Source: Heterodontus francisci
Taxonomy: Eukaryota
Length of the DNA: 64,000 nucleotides
Assembly: GCF_036365525.1 (NCBI RefSeq)
Contig: NC_090375.1
Location: forward strand, 28,718,602-28,782,601
Reading direction: 5' to 3'
Shown: piece by piece, positions 3,549 to 60,376 of the stretch
How positions within the stretch are numbered: position 1 is the first letter of the stretch
Layout of the letters: every line of letters begins with the position of its first letter
Position numbers and translations under genes: made by a program
The notes under the pieces: generated by a model
Database searches by the model: none
Told to the model about the DNA's origin: nothing
What the model saw: only the letters and a program-made list of their open reading frames with translations

Positions 3549-5390
3549 AAAACTTCCATTATGTTCTATATTAGCAACATCAAGAGGCTGAGATAAACTG
3601 TTTATCATATTATCAGTGTTGCTTCAGTCTCACGGTATGCAGCTACCTTGAAACACACTCCACATAAAGGGTTAATGTTAATTACATTTCTTTATGACTT
3701 TCTGGTTTTTCTTGGCGGCTGCGAATAAGTGCCACGGCACCAGTCATGCACTGCTGGCTCGTACAATCAAATGACTTGACTTGAACAGAAGAGGCATTGT
3801 ACCACATGATTTGAAGAACAGTGATATTAGGATTATTCCACTGCATACTGTAAAAGAACATTGTAGCAGAGATAAATGTTATGTAATTATGCAATATTGT
3901 ATTCCTGTGTGTTAACCCATAACAGTTTAATGTTTAAAATGTAAATTATAACATTTTCCTGTGATACAGATTACTTTGAGAGACCATCACCTGCTCCAAA
4001 GCAATTCTAATCTTGTAATGTGCTGAAAGACTTCACCACAACCAATGGGGCCAATTATAAGCTCTCAGCTAATACACTTATACTGAAAGAAATATTAATA
4101 TAAAATAAAACCAATCAAATATTAAAAGTAGCCAGATTACCCTCTGCCCTCTGAAAAATGCTACCAGCTTCTCAGTGCTAATGGATCCCAGATTCTGACT
4201 CTTCCAGCTGCTATCAAAGATAGTTACCAAATGGTCTTTGGCCCAGCTGCCCTTCCTTGCTGGCCTCATGAACCTCCTATCCCGTGGTGCTTTGAAGGGA
4301 CTGGGTGCAACCCACAAGGCTGACCTTGTAGAGACCCAATGGCTCTCCATCTCGGGCAAAGACCCAGGAAAATGATGTTGGAGGTGTATTGTCACAACCC
4401 CTACATCTTTGATATGTAATATACTCCCAAAAATGTGTGTGTGATGGTGACTTGGCATAACAGGTCTCTGCACCATTTTTCCTGCATTGTATTTACCAGG
4501 TGCAAAAGCAGGGGGGAATCAGCCCCAAACAGCTCGAATTTCCTTGTAGCTAGAAAGAAAAAGAAAGGGTAAAATGGACAACTAAATGACTGGGCAGTCA
4601 AACCTTTGGTGGAGGATGTTGTATGGATCTCTGTATGAATGGTTAGTTGAGGATAATTGAGATGGGCTTTGCAGTGAGACTATTAACCTGTTCTCAGTGC
4701 TGGCTTTCAGAAGAAGTAACTGGCAAACTCTTCTGAGAAAGTGGTTGTATGCACAACATTTCCTTATGGAACTGAACTGAAGGTCAATGTGCCAATTAGT
4801 GTTTCTAAAACTAATTGGATTCTGTAGCTCAGTGTACTCAGGGAAGGCTGTTGTTTCCCTGGTGAAGTAAGCTGACCAGTTTGTTTTGTTCGTAATTACT
4901 GAATCAACCAACAAGTTGAAACAACATTTTCTGCAGAATGTACTTAAATAGCAAAATATGAATCATATCACAGTCAATCCACTTATTCACCTCAAAATTA
5001 TAGATGTACATGTACATGGGATAAGGAAGCAAGTGTAGGCCTGATGTGTGCAGAGATGAGTGGGAATATTGCTACTGCCTTTTAACATACTTAAATTACC
5101 AAAATATGCTCAAAAGGCAAGTTTTAAAGGTCCATTCATTACAAAAAGGCAAAACAAATTTAATTTGAAAATATAGATCCTGAAAATTGGGTACGATAAG
5201 AACATTAATACACAACCATTCTATTCCTGGGAAGTTTATGCTAAGTTCTTTTTTATATTCATAAATTTGAATCTTTTCATATGAATCTTTATAACAGCCT
5301 GTATTGAAGAGTTCAATTACGAGGACTGTATTTGTGTTTCATGTAGGTTCACTTATGTTTGTACTCTACATGTATGTCTTTTAATTCCAG

Positions 5391-5571
5391 AACTGGGTAG
5401 TGCTTCATCTCTCCACTACTCAGAGGGAACATCAAGCAGGTCCATTGAGAAGATCCAGGGCAAGTTTAGCAAAGATTTTCAATGTCATCATATGCTAAAG
5501 CACCTGTACAATGGAGCCAGGATCACAGTGCAAATGCCACCCCAAGTGGAGAGCCATTGGGTCTCTACAAG
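5391..5571 (+). CDS. APCDD1: APCDD1 coding exon 2 (phase 1 start, phase 2 end)
   Basis: Acceptor ttaattccAG at 5389-5390 and donor AG|GTGAGT at 5572. Translates (x)[59 protein letters not shown](S), matching human APCDD1 as recalled ([31 protein letters not shown]). 181 nt, frame-compatible with the next exon. Confidence 0.95.
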
Positions 5572-6702
5572 GTGAGTAAACTCCAGTTGTATTACAAGTC
5601 CATTCGACTTATATGAATAACTGATAAGCAGATAATTCTATTAAGTGAATACAAACTGAAAATTCAAGGTGATTTTCTATTTATATCCATTCTACTCCTG
5701 GGCAAGATGCAAGAAAACATAATCCTTCTCTTCCAACCACTCTCTATTGCAATCTTTGTCTCTCTATTTTATCAATATTTTTATGATCATTGCTTCTCTG
5801 CATTTTCCTCTCTTTTTCCTCCTGTGCTGTATTTACACTTTTCTAGACTGTCTCCTCCTTCTTGCATCCTCACTGTATTGAAATGAAGGCACTTTGTGCC
5901 ATTTCATACTGTTCATTCCTTCAGGATCTCTAAGCTACTGAACTTTTATGTTCTTTATCTTTTCTTCCTCTTACAATCTACCAGTTTTTAAAATATCCCA
6001 TCACATACTTGCTACTTCCTGACCTACTCAGTCTTCTCGCCTACTCTTTTCATACTTGGTGTTGTCTTGTACTAATGGGGCTTAGCCTTTCATCTAACTT
6101 TCCCAATAACAAAAATAATTTGGAATAATTTCATCTCCACACAATGGTAAATGAATGCTTACTTAGTGGGATCCCACATTATTGATCATGCAGCTCACAT
6201 TATACACAGTTATCTGTGGTATGACTTATGTTACATCAATAATTTACTAAACTCTCAAGTACTAACAAGAAGCAAATATCAGTTACTTAATTGCACAAGA
6301 ACTTAACAGTCCTGTACCAAATTCCTCACTGCCTTATTTTACTAGAGATGTTAATGCCTGGGGAGAGAAATTTGGAATTGGCATGTTAATTGTTTGTACA
6401 ATAACATTACCATCAGTATCTTCTACCTTTCTATGTTCCATAGCATGTTCAGCTGACAATTAAATGTAAGAAATTGTGCAGCAGACAACTCTACCAATAC
6501 ATATGTCAGACAGAACTCGCTGAAAGAGAGTTAGGATACTTCGTAAACTCAACACTAAATATGTTCAACCAGGGCACAGCAGCAATCAACAAAACAATAG
6601 GATATTGAACTATATAGCAAAACTAGAATGTTATAGAGAAAATTAGAATCAAACTGTATAGTGGTCTGGTCAGACTGCAACTTGTTCTGGTCATAGAGTC
6701 AT

Positions 6703-10630: not shown

Positions 10631-11162
10631 TTGCGAGGTGAGACCAGGTCCTGAGTTCATTACCAGATCCTACAGATTTTACTCCAATAACACATTCAAA
10701 GCTTATCAGTTTAATTATGGAGACAATCACTGTACACATCCCACCTACACCTTGGTGATCAAAGGGAAACTCCGCTTGCGCCAGGCTTCCTGGATCATTC
10801 GAGGAGGAACTGAGGCTGATTACCATCTGCACAGGGTCCAGATCATTTGTCACAAAAAGGTGACAGCTGAGGAGATGAGCCTGAAATTGAACAGGTCGTG
10901 CCCAGGGTTCGTGCCAGGACAGAACGTGTGGGAGCCTAACGTGAGCTACGACCTGTGGAGTGATGAGACTGGCTGCAACTGTTTCCAAGCTCTGAATTTT
11001 GCCATGCACGAACTGCAGCTCCTCAGGGTCGAGAAACAGTACCGGCACCACAATCCTGAGCATGTGGTGCAAGAGCTCTTCCTGGGGGACATCCACACAG
11101 ATTGGTCCCAGAGGATGTATTACAGACCCTCCAGCTATCAACCTGCATTGCAGAATGCTAAG
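10631..11162 (+). CDS. APCDD1: APCDD1 coding exon 3
   Basis: Acceptor ctctccacAG and donor AAG|GTAACT. Inside ORF 10569..11180: [27 protein letters not shown]...[16 protein letters not shown]...[10 protein letters not shown]...[14 protein letters not shown]. 532 nt. Confidence 0.97.
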
Positions 11163-21900: not shown

Positions 21901-22558
21901 TGAAGTTGAATTGCACTTTGAAGGGCTATGTCTACTCTTTTAATGCAATTGCTTCATTCAGATTGCTGGGTAATTCAAATTTTAGGGTCAAAAATCATCT
22001 TTGAATTAACAAGAGTAAACTGGGGATTTTTTTTTTGCTTAGTTTTTTGCTTTTTGTCACCCTGTGACAATGAATGAATTAGGCCATTCTTGTTGGACCC
22101 ATTTGTATACAATGGAATTGATACAGTTTCTTCAAATGAGTTGTGGGGCAAATATTTCATATCTACATAAACTGGAAAATCAATAAAGATTTTTTGGTCT
22201 GACTGCTTTTCAACTAATGATCCAGAGATAGTCAAATAAATAAATAAATAAATCTATTTTGTAAGAAGAAAAGAAAATTTGTCAAGTTGGGTACTGCAGT
22301 GTAAATTTGAGAGTAATACAAAGAACTGGATTTACTTAATGGAAAACGAGAATTAGATGTACAAAGCATTTTATTGTATGTATCCTTGGTTTATCATGCA
22401 GATTTATTAACTTACTTTAGAAATCACCAACCTGAGTTTTTAACTTGAAGCATATTTTGCTCTGTAGATTTTTAAGTCTGCTTACGTTCATAAAACATTA
22501 ATAAAATACACATTGACCAATACATAATGTTAAGTCTTAACACTATCCAATTCCATAA

Positions 22559-22930
<372 letters not shown>

Positions 22931-25411: not shown

Positions 25412-25903
<492 letters not shown>

Positions 25904-32715: not shown

Positions 32716-33511
32716 CCTAAACACAGCCTGAGAAGCTTCACTTTAATGGTTTCCATTATAAATGTGGACACAGAAATTTAAAATGGAAAAATGTAATAGT
32801 AAATATGCATAGACCTAATATTGTTATTATTTTATTAATCAATCACCCGTAGCATGGTACACTGGGGTCAAGACTAACTTTAGTCTTCGGATGCTGTGGG
32901 CTTAAGAGGCCAGAGGGTATTTGGACCAGACATAATTCAGTCCCTATTTTAAAGTCATACATTTTGTACTTACCATTGTAAATTCCTTATATGCACATTT
33001 AAAATGGAAAAATGCCTATGCAAACATATCACACTATAATTACACCCGTCTGGCAGTTTAATTGGATCATTTAACTACATTTTAAAGTTATTCATTAGTA
33101 GTTTGAGGGGACTAAGGAAAAGTATTGAGCTAAGGCAGTTTTCCAATGTAAGAAATGGGGGAAAAAAATGAACAGGATTTCAATCCAGGCTGGTGGTGTA
33201 CACTTGTGAGTTTTCCGATTGATGGGAGGATGGCTGGGAAAAACTCCGAGACAAAGCGCACTGAGGTACAAAACCAGACAGAAATTTTGAACACTCATAT
33301 CTATTAAATAGTCATGAAGCCCCACCAATTGCTTCCAATAAGAATAACATTTCTGACAAAATGGAGAAGAAGCTGGCGAAGGTGCCAGCCAGTTCGTACA
33401 ACTTTTAACAAGTCTGATCTCTCTCCCTGTCACCTTGGATTCTAGTTTGGACTCAGGTTCCACATGAAAGTAATAACTCTGAGCTGGACCCTCAGTCAGA
33501 GCCAACCTGCC

Positions 33512-34525
33512 TTCTTCTTAGGCAGCCCCTCGGGAACGAGGATGACTTTCTTCCACACCAGGGTTGTGGGGCCTTAGATGACTGAATAGTCTAATTCTGG
33601 ATCTGCACACTTTGCCACAGATGGGGCAGGTGGTGTGTGGGAGGCGAGTGAATGGGATGCTCAAATTTCCAAACACTCCTTCCGCTGTTTGCACTTGGTC
33701 GCTGCCTAGACAGGTCGACGTTCTTCGAACTGGCTGGCACCATCGCGGATGCTTCTTCTCCATTTTGGGCAGTCTCGGGCAAGAGATTCCCACGAATCAC
33801 ATTTTTTCAGGGAGGCTTTAAGGACATCCTTGTAGCGTTTCCTCTGCCCTCCAGGTAGCCTCTTGCTGTGACGGAGTTCGGAGTAGAAAGCTTGTTTTGG
33901 GAGTCTTATGTCAGGCATGCAGCCGATGTGGCCCAACCAGCGTAACTGACTAACCATGACCAGTGTCTCGATACTGGGAATGTTGGCCTGAGAGAGGACA
34001 ATGATATTGGAGCACCTGTCCTGCTACTGAATTTGCAGGATCTTGCGGAGGCACCGCTGCTGTTATCTCTCCAGGGCTTTGAGATGTCTGCTATACAGTG
34101 TTCGTGTTTCTGATGCATACAGGAGGGCAGGTAACACTGCGGCCCTGTAGACCATGAACTGGGTGCCAGGTTTGAGGTCTTTGTCGTCAAACACTCTTTT
34201 CCTCAGATGACCGAAGGCTGCATTGACACACTGGAGGCGATGCTGAGTTTCATCCTGGATGTCTGCCTTGCTGAGAGGAGGCTCCCAAGGTATGAGAAGT
34301 GATCCACATTGTCCAGTGGTTCACTGTGGATCTTAATAGTCGGGGGTGGGGGTGGGGGGCAGTGTTGTGCTGTGGGAGTAGGCTGGTAGAGGACCTTTGT
34401 CTTAAAGGTGTTTAGCTTAAGGCCCATTCTTTCATACACCTCCGTGAATGCATCGAGGGTTTGAAGCTCAGCCTCTGAGAGTGCACATAAGCAAGCATCG
34501 TCAGCATACTGCAGCTTGATGACGC
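33512..34525 (-). mobile_element. RTE (BovB-like) LINE 3' fragment
   Basis: QYADDA; MGLKLNTFKTKVL; FSYLGS; QLRWLGHIGCMPDIRLPKQAFYSEL...GGQRKRYKDVLK; terminal C2H2-like CPICGKVCRSRIRLFSHLRPH. Confidence 0.9.
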
Positions 34526-44383: not shown

Positions 44384-47113
44384 CAGTCTCCCTTTCTTTC
44401 CCAGAATCCTATTTCCCAGTCTCACAGTCTCCCCTTTCCCCAGTCTCCAACTCTCACCCTGACCCTCATTCCCCTGTCGCCCACTCTCCCCATTCCCCAG
44501 GCTCCCATTCTCTCCAACCCCCCCATTCCCCAGTCTCCCCATTCCCCAGTCTCCCACTCTCCCCATTCCTCAGTCCCCCACTCTCCCCGTTCCCCAGTCT
44601 CCCATTCTCCCCTTTCCCCAGTCTCCCATTCTCCCCAACCCCCCCAATCCCCATCTCAAATTCTCCCCGTTTCCCAGTCTCCCAGTCTCCCATTCCCCAG
44701 TCTCCCACTCTACCTGACCCTCATTCCCCAGTCTCCCACTCTCCCCATTCCTCAGTCTCCCACTCTCCCTGACCCCCATTGCCAGTCTCCCACTCTCCCC
44801 AGTCCCCAGTCTCCCACTCTCCCCTTTACCCAGTCTCCCACTCTCCCCATTCCCCAGTCTCGAACTCTCCCCATTCCCTAGTCTCCCACTCTCCCCTTTC
44901 CCCAGTCTCCAAGTCTCTCCATTCCCCAGTCTCCCACTCTCCCCATTCCCCAGTCTCCCACTCTCCCTTTTCCCCAATCTCCCACTCTCCCCGATCCCCA
45001 GTCTCCCACTCTCCCCATTTCCCAGCCCCCCACTCTCCCCTTTCCACAGTCTCCCACTCTCCCTGACCCCATTCCCCAGTCTCCCACTCTCCCCGTTCCC
45101 CAGTCTCCCACTCTCCCCGTTCCCCAGTCTCCCACTCTCCCCATTCCCCAGTCACCCACTCTCCCCATTCCCCAGTCTCCCACTCACCCCGTTCCACAGT
45201 CTCCCACTCTCCATTTCCCAGCCTCCCACTCTCCCCCTTCCCCAGTGTCCCACTCTCCCCGTTCCCCAATCTCCCATTCTTCCCAACCCCCCATTCCCCA
45301 GTCTCCCACTCTCTCCATTCCCCAGTCTCCCACCATCTCCATTCCCCGGTCTCCCACTCTCCCCGTTTCCCAGTCTCCCACTCTCCCCTTTCCCCAGTCT
45401 CCCACTCTCCCTGACCCTCATTCCCCAGTCTCCCACTCTCCCCATTCCCCAGCCTCCCACTCTCCCCGCTCGCCAGTCTCCCATTCTCCCTTTTCCCCAG
45501 TCTCCCACTCTCCCCCTTCCCCAGTCTCCCAATCTCCCTTTCCCCCAGTCTCCCACTCTCCCCGTTCCCCAGTCTCCCATTCTTCCCAACCCCCCATTCC
45601 CCAGCCTCCCACTCTCCCCGCTCCCCAGTCTCCCATTCTCCCTTTTCCCCAGTCTCCCAATCTCCCCTTCCCCAGTCTCCCAATCTCCCTTTCCCCCATT
45701 CTTCCCAACCCCCCATTCCCCAATCTCCCATTCTTCCCAACCCCCCATTCCCCAGTCTCCCACTCTCTCCATTCCCCACTCTCCCACTCTCCCCGTTTCC
45801 CAGTCTCCCACTCTCCCCATTCCCCAGTCTCCCATTCTCTCCTTTGCCCAGTCTCCCATTCTCCCCAACCCCTCCATTCCCCAGTCTCCCACTCCCCATT
45901 CCCCAGTCTCCCACTCTCCGCAACCCCCATTCCCCAGTCTCCCACTCTCCCCTTTCCCCAGTCTCCCATTCTTCCCAACCCCCATTCCCCAGTCTCCCAC
46001 TCTCTCCATTCCCCAGTCTCCTACTCTCCCCGTTCCCCAGTCTCCCATTCTCCCCTTTCCCCAGTCTCCCACTCCCCCTGACTCTCATTCCCCAGTCTCA
46101 CACTCTCCCCATTCCCCAGTCTCCCACTCTCCCCTTTGCCAAGTCTCCCATTCTCCACAACCCCTCCTTTCCCCAGTCTCCCACTCTCCATGACCCTCAT
46201 TCCCCAGTCTCCCACACTCCCCATTCCCCAGTCTCCTACTCTCCCCAACCCCATTCCCAAGTCTCCCACTCTCCCTTTCCCCAGTTTCCCACTCTCTCTG
46301 ACCCCCATTCTCCAGTCTCCCATTCTTCCCAACCCCCCATTCCCCAATCTCCCACACTCTCCATTCCCCAGTCTCCCACTCTCTCCATTCCCCAGTCTCC
46401 CACTCTCCCCATTTCCCAGTCTCCCACACTCCCCGTTTCCCAGTCTCCCACTCGCCCCTTTCCCCAGTCTCCCACTCTCCCTGACCTTCATTCCCCAGTC
46501 TCCCACTCTCCCCATTCCCCAGTCTCCCATTCTCCCCTTTGCCCAGTCTCCCATTCTCCCCAACCCCTCCATTCCCCAGTCTCCCACTCTCCCCATTTCC
46601 CAGTCTCCCACTCTCCCCATTCTCCCCTTTCCCCAGTCTCCCACTCTCCCCAACCCCCATTCCCCAGTCTCCCACTCTCCCCTTTCCCCAGTCTCCCATT
46701 CTTCCCAACCCCCCATTCCCCAGTCTCCCACTCTCTCCATTCCCCAGTCTCCCACTCTCCCCGTTTCCCAGTCTCCCACTCTCCCCATTCCCCAGTCTCC
46801 CACTCTCCCCTTTCCCCAGTCTCCCACTCTCCCTGACGCTCATTCCCCAGTCTCCCACTCTCCCCGTTCCCCAGTCTCCCATTCTCCCCAACCCCTCCAT
46901 TCCCCAGTCTCCCACTCTCCCCATTTCCCAGTCTCCCACTCTCCCCATTCCCCAGTCTCCCACTCTCCCCAACCCCCATTCCCCAGTCTCCCACTCTCCC
47001 CTTTCCCCAGTTTCCCACTCTCTCTGACCCCCATTCCCCAGTCTCCCACTCTCCCCAACCCCCACTCCCCAGTCTCCCCATTCCCCAGTCTCCCACTCTC
47101 CCCATTCCCCAGT
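44384..47113. repeat. C/T-rich minisatellite, core unit ~24 bp (TTCCCCAGTCTCCCACTCTCCCCA)
   Basis: About a hundred imperfect units. They produce 8-aa periodic pseudo-ORFs in all frames (GESGRLGN, SPVSHSPH). Confidence 0.95.
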
Positions 47114-47116
47114 GAC

Positions 47117-49681
47117 TAATATGCTTCACCTGTGAGATGTGGGAAGTCCGTGATGCTTCCAGCATTCCGGACGACTACATCTGCAGGAAGTGTACCCAGT
47201 TGCAGCTCCTCACAGACCACATGGATCGGTTGGAGCGGCAACTGGATGCACTTAGGAGCATGCAGATGGCGGAAAGCGACATAGACAGGAGTGTTAGAGA
47301 AGAGGTTACACCCAAGGTGCAGGCAGATAGATGGGTGACCGCTAGAAGGGGCAGGCAGTCAGTGCAGGAATCCCCTGTGTCTATCCCCTTCTCTAACAAA
47401 TATACCGTTTTGGATACTGTTGTGGGGGATGGCCTATCAGGGGAAAACAGCAGCAGCCAGAGCAGTGGCACCACGGCTGGCAAAGTTGTCCAGCAGGGAG
47501 GGACAAAGCGCAGAAGAGCAATAGTTATAGGGGACTCTATAGTCAGGGGCACAGATAGGTGCTTCTGTGGACGTGAAAGAGACTCCAGGATGGTATGTTG
47601 CCTCCTTGGTACCAGGGTCAAGGATGTCTCTGAACGGACAGGGGGCATTCTGAAGGGGGAGGGTGAACAGCCAGAGGTTGTGGTACACATCGGTACCAAC
47701 GACATAGGCAGGAAGAGTGATGAGGTCCTGCAGGGGTAGTTCAGGGAGTTAGGTAGAAAGTTAAAAAACAGGACCTCTCGGGTTGTAATCTCGGGATTAC
47801 TCCCTGTGCCACGTGCCAGTGAGGCTAGGAATAGGAAGATAGTGCAGCTAAACATGTGGCTGAACAGCTGGTGTAGAAGGGAGGGTTTCAGATATCTAGA
47901 CCATTGGGATCTCTTCAGGGACAGATGGGACCTGTACAAGAAGGACAGGTTGCATCTAAACTGGAGGGGCACTAATATCCTGGCTGCAAGATTTGCTAGC
48001 GTCACTCGGGACGTTTTAAACTAGTGTGGCAGGGGGGTGGGAACCAGAGCAGTAGGACAGCTAGTGAAATAAATGAGGAAAATAGTAAATAAGGCTAGTA
48101 GGACTAAGAGGAGGAGCAGGCAGGGAGATGTTGCTGAGCACAGCGGGACTGGTGGTCTGAAGTGCATTTGTTTCAATGCGAGAAGTATAACGCGTAAGGC
48201 AGATGAACTGAGAGCTTGGATTAGTACTTGGAAATATGATGTTGTTGCTATTACAGAGACTTGGTTGAGGGAAGGGCAGGATTGGCAGCTAAATGTTCCA
48301 TGATTTAGAAGCTTCAGGCGGGATAGAGGGGGATGCAAAAGGGGTGGGGGAGTTGCATTACTGGTTAAGGAGAATATCACAGCTGTACTGTGGGAGGACA
48401 CCCCAGAGGGGTCATGCAGTGAGGCAATATGGGTAGAGCTCAGGAATAGGAAGGGTGTTGGGGGTTTACTACAGGCCTCCCAACAGCCAGCAGGAGGTAG
48501 AGGAGCAGATATGTAGACAGGTTTTGGAAAGATGTAAAGGTAACAGGGTTGTGGTGGTGGGTGATTTTAACTTCCTCTATATTGACTGGGACTCACTTAG
48601 TGCTAGGGGCTTGGATGGGGCAGAATTTGTGAGGAGCATCCAGGTGGGCTTCTTGAAACAGTATGTAGATAGTCCAACTAGGGAAGGTGCCATTCTGGAC
48701 CTGGTATTAGGGAATGAGCCCGGCCAGGTGGTCGAAGTTTCAGTGGGGGAGCATTTCGGGAACAGTGACCATAATTCCATAAGTTTTAAGGTACTTGTGG
48801 ATAAGGATAAGAGTAGTCCTCGGGTGAAGGTGCGAAATTGGGGGAAGGCTAATTTTAACAATAGCAGGCAGGAACTGAAGAGTTTAGATTGGGGGCGGCT
48901 GTTTGAGGGTAAATCAACATCTGACATGTGGGAGTCTTTCAAACGTCAGTTGATTAGAATCCAGGACCAGCATGTTCCTGTAAGGAAGAAGGACAAGTTT
49001 GGCAAGTTTTGGAAGCTTGGATAATGCGGGATATTGTGAGCCTCGTCAAAAAGTAAAAGGAAGCATTCGTAAGGGCTGGAAGGCTAGGAACAGACGAGGC
49101 ACTTGAGGAATATAAAGGCAGTAGGAAGGAACTTAAGCAAGGAGTTAGGAGGGCTAAAAGGGGTCATGAAAAGTCATTGGCAAACAGGATTAAGGAAAAT
49201 CCCAAGGATTTTTATACGTATATAAAGAGCAAGAGGGTAACCAGGGAAAGGGTTGGCCCAGTCAAGGACAGAGATGGGAATCTATGTGTGGAGCCAGAGG
49301 AAATGGGCAAGGTGCTAAATGAGTACTTTGCATCAGTATTCACCAAAGAGAAGGACTTGGTGGATGATGAGCCTAGGGAAGGGAGTGCAGATAGTCTCAG
49401 TCATCTCATTATCAAAAAGGAGGAGGTGTTGGGTGTCTTGCAAAGCATTAAGGTAGATAGGTCCCCAGGGCCTGATGGGATCTACCCTAGAATACTGAGG
49501 GAGGCAAGGGAAGAAATTGCTGGGGCCTTGACAGAAATCTTTGCATCCTCATTGGCTACAGGTGAGGTCCCAAAGGACTGGAGAATAGCCAATGTTGTTC
49601 CTTTGTTTAAGAAGGGTGGCAAGGATAATCCAGGAAATTATAGGCCGGAGAGCCTTACGTCAGTGGTAGGGAAACTATTAG
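47117..49681 (+). mobile_element. CR1 family A: ORF1 and 5' half of ORF2 (APE endonuclease to start of RT), disrupted
   Basis: CFTCEMW...ICRKC zinc finger, leucine zipper, IVIGDSIVRG / VHIGTNDIG esterase. EN motifs FNARS, TETWL, YYRPP, VVGDFN, LDLVL, SDH. Also SPGPDG and NYRPESLTS. Several stops. Confidence 0.93.
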
Positions 49682-50218: not shown

Positions 50219-52279
50219 CCCTCAAACAGCCGCCCCCAATCTAAATTTTTCAGTTCCTGCCTAATATTGTTATAATTAGCCTTCCCCCAATTTTGCACCT
50301 TCACCTGAGGACTACTCTTATCCTTATCCACAAGTACCTTAAAACTTATGGAATTATGGTTACTGCTCCCGAAATGCTCCCCCACTGAAACTTCGACCAC
50401 CTGGCCGGGCTCATTCCCCAATACCAGGTCCAGAATGGCCCCTTCCCTAGTTGGACTATCTACATACTGTTTCAAGAAGCCCTCCTGGATGCTCCTCACA
50501 AATTCTGCCCCATCCAAGCCCCTAGCACTAAGTGAGTCCCAGTCAATATAGGGGAAGTTAAAATCACCCACCACCACAACCCTGTTACCTTTACATCTTT
50601 CCAAAACCTGTCCACATATCTGCTCCTCTACCTCCCGCTGGCTGTTGGGAGGCCTGTAATAAACCCCCAACATCGTGACTGCACCCTTCCTATTCCTGAG
50701 CTCCACCCACAATTGCCTCACTGCATGAACCGTCTGAGGTGTCCTCCCGCAGTACAGCTGTGATATTCTCCTTAACCAGTATTGCAACTCCCCCACCCCT
50801 TTTACATCCCCCTCTATCCCGCCTGAAGCTTCTCAAGCCTGGAATATTTAGCTGCCAATCCTGCCCTTCCCTCAACCAAGCCTCTGTAATAGCAACAACA
50901 TCATATTTCCAAGTACTAATCCAAGCTCTAAGTTCATCTGCCTTACCCGTTATTCTTCTCGCATTGAAACAAATGCACTTCAGACCACCAGTCCCGCTGT
51001 GCTCAGCAACATCTCCCTGCCTACTCTTCCTCTTAGTCCTACTGGCCTTATTTACTATGTCCTCCTCATTTATTTCACTAGCTGTTCTACTGCTCTGGTT
51101 CCCACCCCCCTGCCACACTAGTTTAAACCCTCCCGAGTGACGCTAGCAAACCTTGCAGCCAGGATATTAGTGCCCCTCCAGTTTAGATGCAACCTGTCCC
51201 TCTTGTACAGGTCCCATCTGTCCCTGAAGAGAGCCCAATGGTCCAGATATCTGAAACCCTCGCTTCTACACCAGCTGCTCAGCCACGTGTTTAGCTGCAC
51301 TATCTTCCTATTTCTAGCATCACTGGCATGTGGCACAGGGAGTAATCCAGAGATTACAACCCTTGAGGTCCTGTTTTTTAACTAACTACCTAGCTCCCTG
51401 AACTCCCCCTGCAGGACCCCGTCACTCTTCCTCCCTACGTCATTGGTACCGATGTGTACCACAACCTCTGGCTGGTCACCCTCCCCCTTCAGAATGCCCC
51501 CTGTCCGTTCAGAGACATCCTTGACCCTGGCACCAGGGAGGCAACATACCATCCTGGAGTCTATTTCACGTCCACAGAAGCGCCTATCTGTGCCCCTGAC
51601 TGTAGAGTCCCCTATAACTATTGTTCTTTTGCGCTTTGTCCCTCCCTGCTGGACAACATTGCCAGCCGTGGTGCCACTGCTCTAGCTTCTGCTGTTTTCC
51701 CCTGATAGGCCATCCCCCACAACAGTATCCAAAACGGTATATTTGTTAGAGAGGGGGATAGCCACAGGGGATTCCTGCACTGACTGCCTGCCCCTTCTAG
51801 CGGTCACCCATCTATCTGCCTGCACCTTGGATGTAACCACTTCTCTAAAACTCCTGTCTGTGACGCTTTCCGCCACCTGCATGCTCCTAAGTGCATCCAG
51901 TTGCCGCTCCAACCGATCCATGCGGTCTGTGAGGAGCTGCAACTGGGGACACTTCCTGCAGATGTAGTTGCCCGGAACGCTGGAAGCGTCACGGACCTCC
52001 GACATCTTACAGGTGAAGCACTTCACCCCTCTGACTGACATTTATATCACTAATTAATAAATTAATTTAAAATAAATAAATGCTTATTAAATCCTTACTA
52101 AATTATGATCCACTTAACTATGTGGTCCCTAGTGCTAGATTTCTACAATAAATACTAAATGCTATCTAAATACAGTAATCTCCTTCCTCTGGTTTAGTTA
52201 CTCTACTTATTAAGTAGTTAATTAGTGTTTTAATCAATTTTTATCAGTTTTATTTTCAAATTCAGTACAGATTCCCTGC

Positions 52280-52316
52280 CAGCCAATCAGGTCACAGCTT
52301 TCCTGTGACGTCACTT
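52280..52316 (-). promoter_or_regulatory. Putative CR1 internal promoter module (CRE, GGAA, CCAAT)
   Basis: Perfect GTGACGTCAC palindrome at 52305-52314, CAGGAAAG, and CCAAT at 52283-52287. The same order recurs in degenerate form at 38412-38445 in family C. Confidence 0.45.
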
Positions 52317-52651: not shown

Positions 52652-53000
52652 TCCTCCCCATTCCCCAGTCTCCCACTCTCCCCGTTTCCCAGTCTCCCAC
52701 TCTCCCCGTTCCCCAGTCTCCCACTCTCCCCGTTCCCAATCTTCCACTCTCCCCGTTCCCCAGTCTCCTACTCTTCCCGTTCCCCAGTCTCCCACTCTCC
52801 CCATTCCCCAGTCTCCCACTCTCCCCATTCCCCAGTCTCCCACTCGACCCCGACTCCCGTCCCCCAGTCTCCCACTCTCCCCCGACTCCCGTTCCCCATC
52901 TCTCACTCTCCCCCGGCTCCCGTTCCCCAGTCTCCCATCTCCCCCGGCTCCCGTTCCCCAGTCTCCCATCTCCCCAGGCCCCCACTCCCTCTTTCCCCCG
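52652..53000. repeat. Continuation of the 24-bp C/T-rich minisatellite
   Basis: Same TTCCCCAGTCTCCCACTCTCCCC units, decaying toward 53000. Confidence 0.9.
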
Positions 53001-58275: not shown

Positions 58276-58328
58276 GTGTGAGGCAAACCCCCACGTACCA
58301 AGACTAAGGCACACATTATTTCGCCACA

Positions 58329-60376
58329 TGAATTTGAAAATAAAACTGATAAAAATTGATTAAAACACTAATTAACTACTTAATAAGTAGTGTAACTAAA
58401 CCAGAGGAAGGAGATTACTGTATTTAGATAGCATTTGGTATTTATTGTAGAAATCTAGCACTAGGGACCACATAGTTAAGTGGATCATAATTTAGTAAGG
58501 ATTTAATAAGTATTTATTTATTTTAAATTAATTTATTAATTAGTGCTAGAAATGTCAGTTAGAGGGGTGAAGTGCTTCACCTGTGAGATGTGGGAGGTCC
58601 GTGACACTTCCAGCGTTCCGGGCGACTACATCTGCAGGAAGTGCACCCAGTTGCAGCTCCTCACAGACCGCATGGATCGGTTGGAGCGGCAACTGGATGC
58701 ACTTAGGAGCATGCAGGTGGCGGAAAGTGTCATCGACAGGAGTTTTAGAGAAGTGGTCACACCCAAAGTGCAGGCAGATAGTTGGGTGACCGCGAGAAGG
58801 GGCAGGCAGTCAGTGCAGGAATCCCCTGTGGCTATCCCCCTCTCTAACAAGTATACCGTTTTGGATACTGTTTGGGGGGGGATTGCCTATCAGGGGAAAA
58901 CAGCAGCAGCCAGAGCAGTGGCACCATGGATGGCACTGTTGTTCAGCAGGGAGGGACAAAGCGCAGAAGAGCAATAGTTATAGGGGACTCTATAGTCAGG
59001 GGCACAGATAGGCGCTTCTGTGGACATGAAAGAGACTCCAGGATGGTATGTTGCCTCCCTGGTGCCAGGGTCAAGGATGTCTCTGAACGGACAGGGGGCA
59101 TTCTGAAGGGGGAGGGTGAACAGCCAGAGGTTGTGGTACACATCGGTACCAATGACATAGGTAGGAAGAGTGACGGGGTCCTGCAGGGGGAGTTTAGGGA
59201 GTTAGGTAGTAAATTAAAAAACAGGACCTCAAGGGTTGTAATCTCTGGATTACTCCCTGTGCCACATGCCAGTGAGGCTAGAAATAGGAAGATAGTGCAG
59301 CTAATCACGTGGCTGAACAGCTGGTGTAGAAGCGAGGGTTTCAGATATCTGGACCATTGGGATCTCTTCAGGGACAGATGGGACCTGTACAAGAAGGACG
59401 GGTTGTATCTAAACTGGAGGGGCACTAATATCCTGGCTGCAAGGTTTGCTAGCGTCACTCGGGAGGGTTTAAACTAGTGTGGCAGGGAGGTGGGAACCAG
59501 AGCAGTAGAACAGCTAGTGAAATAAATGAGGAGGACATAGTAAATAAGGCCAGTAGGACTAAGAGGAAGAGCAGGCAGGGAGATGTTGCTGAGCACAGCG
59601 GGACTGGTGGTCTGAAGTGCATTTGTTTCAATGCAAGAAGAAAAACGGGTAAGGCAGATGAACTTAGAGCTTGGATTAGTACTTGGAAATATGATGTTGT
59701 TGCTATTACAGAGACTTGGTTGAGGGAAGGGCAGGATTGACAGCTAAATGTTCCAGGCTTTAGAAGCTTCAGGCGGGATAGAGGGGGATGTAAAAGGGGT
59801 GGGGGAGTTGCATTACTGGTTAAGGAGAATATCACAGCTGTACTGCGGGAGGACACCTCAGACGGTTCATGCAGTGAGGCAATTGTGGGTGGAGCTCAGG
59901 AATAGGAAGGGTGCAGTCACGATGTTGGGGGTTTACTACAGGCCTCCCAACAGCCAGCGGGAGGTAGAGGAGCAGATATGTAGACAGGTTTTGGAAAGAT
60001 GTAAAGGTAACAGGGTTGTGGTGGTGGGTGATTTTAACTTCCCCTATATTGACTGGGACTCACTTAGTGCTAGGGGCTTGGATGGGGCAGAATTTGTGAG
60101 GAGCATCCAGGAGGGCTTCTTGAAACAGTATGTAGATAGTCCAACTAGGGAAGGGGCCATTCTGGACCTGGTATTAGGGAATGAGCCCGGCCAGGTGGTC
60201 GAAGTTTCAGTGGGGGAGCATTTCGGGAACAGTGACCATAATTCCATAAGTTTTAAGGTACTTGTGGATAAGGATAAGAGTAGTCCTCGGGTGAAGGTGC
60301 TAAATTGGGGGAAGGCTAATTATAACAATATTAGGCAGGAACTGAAAAATTTAGATTGGGGGTGGCTGTTTGAGGG
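58329..60376 (+). mobile_element. CR1 family A 5' half (5' UTR, ORF1, EN)
   Basis: ORFs 58543..58977 and 58872..59477 (ORF1 with a frameshift in a G-run); 59477..59740 and 59748..60386 (EN). Confidence 0.93.

Follow-up and report, generated by a model that had tools for sequence, protein, structure and literature searches.

Intron 1 of the horn shark (Heterodontus francisci) APCDD1 gene contains an inverted copy of the 3' end of exon 2 and its splice donor, and we put about an even chance on this intronic arm being an old, tolerated scar of templated duplication, left by a polymerase template switch. An earlier sequence-only reading had described the arm as a 27-nt perfect reverse complement, and direct comparison across the window (the whole 64-kb stretch of DNA analysed) confirmed that 4323-4349 and 5547-5573 are exact reverse complements. 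The extended inverted match covers 37 nt at 89% identity (4320-4356 against 5540-5576), with arm and exonic template differing at four of the 37 positions. The arm lies upstream of its template, across a gap of 1,197 nt (~1.2 kb). On the exon side, the pairing takes in the last 25-32 nt of exon 2 and then the donor as far as +6. The reported extension across the donor to about 5577 also held, with a lone G.G mismatch at donor +3 and a G:U pair at donor +6 (4319/5577). For a 181-nt exon compared with 20 kb, about 6e-10 perfect 27-nt pairings are expected by chance.

The arm was also correctly described as unique sequence. In a search allowing up to two mismatches, the 27-mer occurred at exactly two sites in the 6.0-Gb genome, and 3900-4800 matched only itself under a search method that ignores very common words. 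An origin of the arm from a transposable element was rejected.

Feature coordinates are collected in Table 1. Exon 1 of APCDD1 lies ~3.1 kb upstream of the window, and intron 1 is ~8.4 kb long. The translation of exons 2 and 3 is identical to a horn shark protein named APCDD1-like (P0128). Two Ser codons fall in the duplex, as had been claimed: AGC and the split codon AG|T, the latter completed by the T that begins exon 3 at 10631. Their first bases are A5552 and A5570. Over the same motif, mouse APCDD1 (PDB) reads EGHWVSTGCEVR. The passages of the APCDD1 structure paper considered here (PMC10193966) do not mention the duplex Ser residues under the numberings tried. Exon 2 also contains an ATG in a shifted frame (5511-5571), and translation from it is similar to the start of P0133, the sawfish isoform X2 model, in which exon 2 is read in a shifted frame; if the likeness holds, the sawfish donor would lie 4 nt further downstream and its split codon would encode Asn. 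At the synonymous positions 5557 and 5566, this genome has a T that the arm matches, whereas the paralogue APCDD1L and probably sawfish, judged from its alternative-frame isoform, have C.

Table 1. Features of APCDD1 and of the inverted copy, in window coordinates.
Feature	Position	Strand	Remarks
APCDD1 exon 2	5391..5571	+	181 nt, not a multiple of 3; spliced contigs X5 and X8 join at both ends
APCDD1 exon 3	10631..11162	+	first base T completes AG|T (Ser)
APCDD1 exon 4 region	22544..22921	+	limits of protein match, approximate
APCDD1 last coding exon region	25442..25900	+	limits of protein match, approximate
Intronic arm, inverted copy of exon 2 3' end and donor	4319..4356	-	perfect core 4323-4349; in intron 1
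Template of the arm	5540..5577	+	last 32 nt of exon 2 and donor GTGAGT
Adenosines in the template	5540..5577		A5544, A5545 (opposite C, synonymous if edited), A5550, A5552, A5556, A5567, A5569, A5570
Local 6-bp hairpin over 5' end of arm	4314..4329	+	from fold of 4290-4380; predicted rival to long-range pairing

Local inverted copies of comparable spacing occur elsewhere in this genome. Across 724 kb around the window, the APCDD1 pair is the only perfect two-copy inverted repeat of at least 20 nt in unique flanks; with mismatches allowed, the same 724 kb holds six two-copy inverted pairs less than 3 kb apart, the APCDD1 pair included. Eighty kinase-centred stretches of 10 kb yielded three inverted pairs less than 1 kb apart and one at 7.3 kb. 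Several pairs spaced 200-470 nt apart may be transposon ends. One 48-nt inverted pair in the window (33357-33402 and 33720-33767, 85% identity, 317 nt apart) possibly marks the ends of a small transposon. Besides the APCDD1 pair, about 750 kb of non-repetitive DNA contains three two-copy inverted pairs 0.9-1.5 kb apart, all away from exons. A MOB1 intron (G000:C1:283126927-283128308) carries a two-block inverted duplication (64 nt at 97% and 50 nt at 88%, ~1.1 kb apart). Similar pairs occur in kinase stretch L112 and near the window, and these cases jointly hint at a class of inverted copies with 0.9-1.5 kb spacing.

The APCDD1 copy was the only one of 12 pairs to overlap an exon with its donor, by a crude test. 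None of the 80 kinase exons had an inverted copy of 36 bits or more in an unmasked screen; two weaker matches (30-34 bits, 77-80% identity), one inside its exon (L096) and the other beside it (L112), were within chance and were set aside. No exon-overlapping arm was found in this genome at TEX261, two MOB1 loci, one further MOB locus or exon 2 of the paralogue APCDD1L. At a background of three events per ~750 kb, chance would cover ~30-80 donors per genome (range 7-230, with 200,000 donors assumed), and the chance for a given site is ~2-4e-4, equally for a second copy on the same exon. Recurrent cases at different genes are thus to be expected. With 8-11% decay, 37 nt would retain 27 consecutive matches with a probability of 9-19%, so the quality of the arm is not in itself evidence of constraint.

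A more distant relative, organism C, was represented by two DNA runs from one sample, of which 84-86% was read. Its pieces aligned to the region with ~12% difference. Both runs had zero cover at 4328-4431, with flanking blocks aligning on either side. One contig (X16) containing the orthologous 3600-3801 block of intron 1 carries, further upstream, an opposite-strand 37-nt piece starting from 5552 (~5552-5588). This inverted donor copy appears in one of the two runs and at a non-orthologous place, with gene orientation assumed from collinearity. Both runs contain a 69-nt inverted copy of 5373-5441, comprising the acceptor and the start of exon 2, with six differences; its site in intron 2 is bounded by the positions orthologous to 6252 and 6290. 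The 6252-6290 interval spans 37 nt in this genome versus ~167 nt in organism C, where the inverted copy is at least 69 nt long. We scanned APCDD1 of this genome for remnants of organism C's extra copies and found none scoring above shuffled sequence; a match of 20 out of 30 at 6223-6252 was at chance level. Independent matches on the same exon are not expected by chance, and a second inverted copy on that exon therefore points to selection, to a hotspot at this locus, or to a single ancestral event, possibly with several templates, that was later rearranged.

In the scenario that we favour, a polymerase template switch in a shark ancestor would have copied the exon 2 end, donor included, backwards into intron 1. 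The copy would then have decayed slowly, because one partner of the duplex is a conserved exon. Pairing in the pre-mRNA may occur and be outpaced or tolerated by splicing, and any partial ADAR editing or splice delay would be a by-product. Kilobase-spaced inverted copies in plain introns of the same genome argue for this scenario, as do the zero cover of organism C at 4328-4431, the lack of exon-overlapping arms at the other loci and kinase exons surveyed, and the expression of unrestored Ser in skate and fish transcripts. A neutral short inverted duplication, named by the sequence-only reading as its alternative, thus becomes the preferred explanation, with confidence evenly poised. Against a scar are the exact end of the arm at donor +6, two unexplained exon 2 differences in spliced contig X5, and the inverted copies of both exon 2 splice sites in organism C, where the second match has a probability of ~2-4e-4 by chance, unless both arose in one complex event or at a local hotspot. 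By eye, no junction microhomology was evident at the 4319 end, where the junctions have decayed and only the filled allele was seen.

One close parallel is the templated inverted insertion produced by template switching (MMB-TI). Like the events described in the consulted parts of PMC8421209, the arm repeats, in inverted form, a unique sequence close by; those events persist as germline variants and can involve multiple templates. Unlike the arm, which is an old event with a ~1.2 kb gap, MMB-TI as defined in those parts has its template within 100 bp and mostly shows junction microhomology (PMC8421209), and the wider spacing counts against the scar explanation. Given that spacing, we group the arm with local inverted micro-duplications, of which it adds one more case, and not with MMB-TI proper; the class measured here comprises inverted copies ~1-1.5 kb apart. 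If neutral, the arm belongs to a set of a few dozen such copies to be expected in each genome, and it warns that perfect exon-intron complements in slow-evolving genomes do not evidence function.

Within the pre-mRNA, the arm and the 3' end of exon 2 are predicted to form a duplex. In the predicted fold of 4250-5650, an equilibrium model, pairing probability exceeds 0.97 over 4319-4348, the mismatch excepted. The predicted duplex energy is -67.6 kcal/mol versus -19 and -25 kcal/mol for local folds, one of which is the hairpin over the 5' end of the arm. The predicted pairing spans donor -3 to +6, the stretch that U1 binds, and so covers the splice site as masking structures do. As predicted, this is also an exon-intron duplex of ~20-40 bp within one pre-mRNA, the type formed by ADAR editing-complementary sequences (ECS).

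Such a structure could have been selected to control splicing, which we regard as possible but doubtful. Under this model, pairing between arm and donor would delay U1 and divert some transcripts to exon 2 skipping, tuning dose; skipping would cause a frameshift and likely decay of the transcript, and APCDD1 is a Wnt feedback inhibitor. The predicted pairing over the donor, with one mismatch and a halt at +6, and its predicted energy relative to the local folds fit this model, as do the inverted copies over both exon 2 splice sites in organism C, where the second arm would mask the acceptor. However, exon 2 was included in both spliced contigs described below, in an aligned stretch (3600-6700) to which skipping contigs would not align, and no exon 2 skip was present among the short APCDD1 isoforms examined (P0125, P0132 and P0134). 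The donor copy of organism C lies upstream of the 3600 block instead of at the orthologous place, and the local hairpin at 4314-4329 can form first.

Evidence from transcripts came from assembled contigs of four out of 24 runs, aligned to 3600-6700; contigs drop minority variants. Two runs, X5 and X8, were taken as RNA by inferred run type, and the contigs of both were spliced. The X8 contig, from the close relative organism B (depth 260), runs through exons 1-2-3 and differs from this genome at 5391 and 5527. Both differences lie outside the duplex and are shared with organism C DNA, so the majority transcript of organism B is unedited in the duplex. At position 5391 this species has A, retained in the X5 contig, and organisms B and C have G, so that the codon spanning exons 1 and 2 encodes Glu in the former and Gly in the latter.

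For the X5 contig, from Heterodontus francisci itself (depth 9), the aligned exon 2 piece likewise ends at 5571, which makes editing of A5570 improbable in this contig. Two further differences from the genome fall in exon 2 and are undisplayed. The alignment table apparently omits changes within ~31 nt of piece ends, as one organism C piece had 34 of its 41 changes listed and none of these in the first 31 nt. By this display rule, the two hidden differences likely lie in 5387-5417 or in 5541-5571, the latter being the duplex, and whether they are A>G changes in the duplex is about evenly balanced. The three kinds of change tallied for X5 equal the three left over from X8, with A>G absent from the listed tally of X5, and they probably stem from repeat pieces. 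Nearly all exon 3 words were present in the X5 run (share 0.81), so SNPs are not dense in APCDD1.

These observations bear on whether the arm is a functional ECS. The suggestion that an ECS could sit in the upstream intron is plausible given CaV1.3 (CACNA1D), where, according to the excerpted text of PMC6101491, exon 41 forms a 30-40 bp duplex with a complement kilobases away in the preceding intron. By analogy, partial and tissue-limited ADAR editing might diversify the APCDD1 protein (E>G, S>G, H>R and T>A), and editing at donor -2 could weaken splicing; we consider this quite unlikely. The layout matches that of the 40-bp CaV1.3 duplex (PMC6101491, same excerpts), the hidden X5 differences may fall in the duplex of a gene in which SNPs are not dense, and A5545, followed by a G, lies opposite C in the duplex. 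Partial GRIA2 editing is described for shark brain in the parts of PMC8659423 considered, although the paper's text is inconsistent. However, the two X5 letters are undisplayed and may be SNPs or errors, the listed X5 changes include no A>G, A5570 is probably unedited there, and the organism B contig is unchanged in the duplex at its depth of 260. ADAR disfavours a 5' G most among neighbouring bases, and this is the base that precedes A5552; editing of A5545, structurally the best target, would be synonymous. Any editing that does occur may be a by-product.

GRIA2-4 R/G sites are edited in a short hairpin formed with the downstream intron and containing an A.C mismatch. APCDD1 resembles them in having an A at donor -2, an AAG context and a duplex covering the donor, but its pairing segment lies 1.2 kb upstream and sets a U, not a C, opposite the A. 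The CaV1.3 ECS is nearly identical in human, mouse and rat, whereas in organism C the APCDD1 copy occupies a different, non-orthologous position; CaV1.3 editing was demonstrated and was lost on deletion of the ECS, whereas the APCDD1 duplex is a predicted candidate (PMC6101491, in the sections available). Yak APCDD1 is listed among edited genes, in passages of PMC9624038 that carry no site description. Our literature search, with subscription papers mostly outside it, found nothing published on shark APCDD1 that concerns editing or a complementary intronic sequence.

The sequence-only reading had further proposed that editing restores Gly at the two Ser codons, and the distribution of residues across relatives did not bear this out. 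Among 233 proteins examined, 194 contained the motif, the other 39 being fragments or variants missed by the pattern. Cartilaginous fishes contributed 33 proteins with the motif out of 37, from 18 named species and including isoforms that are not independent. The first site is Ser in all 33, chimaera included, and Gly in 160 of the 161 non-chondrichthyan proteins. At the second site, the cartilaginous fishes have Ser in 28 proteins, Gly in four (among them chimaera and Narcine) and Asn in one (whale shark), and the other 161 proteins have Ser in 110, Gly in 45 and Arg in six. Since the paralogue APCDD1L of this genome has Gly at both sites, Gly is the likely ancestral state.

Proteins translated from Logan contigs with the whole spliced frame were Ser/Ser in 10 out of 10 members of the skate cluster, and among the 25 others, 18 of ray-finned-fish type were Gly/Ser and seven were Gly/Gly. 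In searches for shark transcript proteins carrying Gly, the skate cluster was the only transcript-derived one recovered. Ser occurs in transcript-derived proteins of many lineages, so it is normal and expressed at both positions, and restoration of Gly is absent in most readable transcripts.

High-level editing of A5552 and A5570 that returns the ancestral Gly, and that made the genomic G>A changes tolerable, is therefore very improbable. The edited residue would be the ancestral one, as seen in outgroups and the paralogue, and each Ser codon needs a single A>G; in this the site resembles the restorative or harm-permitting editing described in the portion of PMC6881472 consulted. Unlike those cases, as that portion presents them, Ser here is fixed and expressed unedited across many lineages, and nothing points to a harm that editing would have to undo. 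Under restorative recoding, edited transcripts should predominate in every lineage with a genomic A, and in the skate and fish-type transcript proteins and the X8 contig they did not. Several results count against restoration: Ser at the first site throughout the cartilaginous-fish proteins with the motif, the frequent Ser at the second site in other proteins (110 of 161) and its mixture with Gly and Asn in cartilaginous fishes, the Ser/Ser skate transcripts, and the unedited organism B contig. For skate and organism B, they already largely refute it. The splice consensus also has A at donor -2, so the G>A change there can be explained without editing.

A broader and unlikely scenario is that sharks co-opted kilobase-range template-switch scars as regulatory arms, the APCDD1 splice-site copies, retained or gained anew in several lineages, giving rise to an ADAR-edited, splice-modulating duplex with an editing site born from a copying error. 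If the arm proved to be edited or splice-active, it would show an ECS arising from scratch, which is an open question in the evolution of editing.

Other repeated sequence in the window includes long C-rich tandem arrays with an 8/24-nt unit and strong GC skew (44411-47113 and 52654-52975). Three young, near-identical repeat copies in inverted orientations lie at ~47200-48800, 50300-52300 and 58300-60300, with perfect matches of up to 193 nt.
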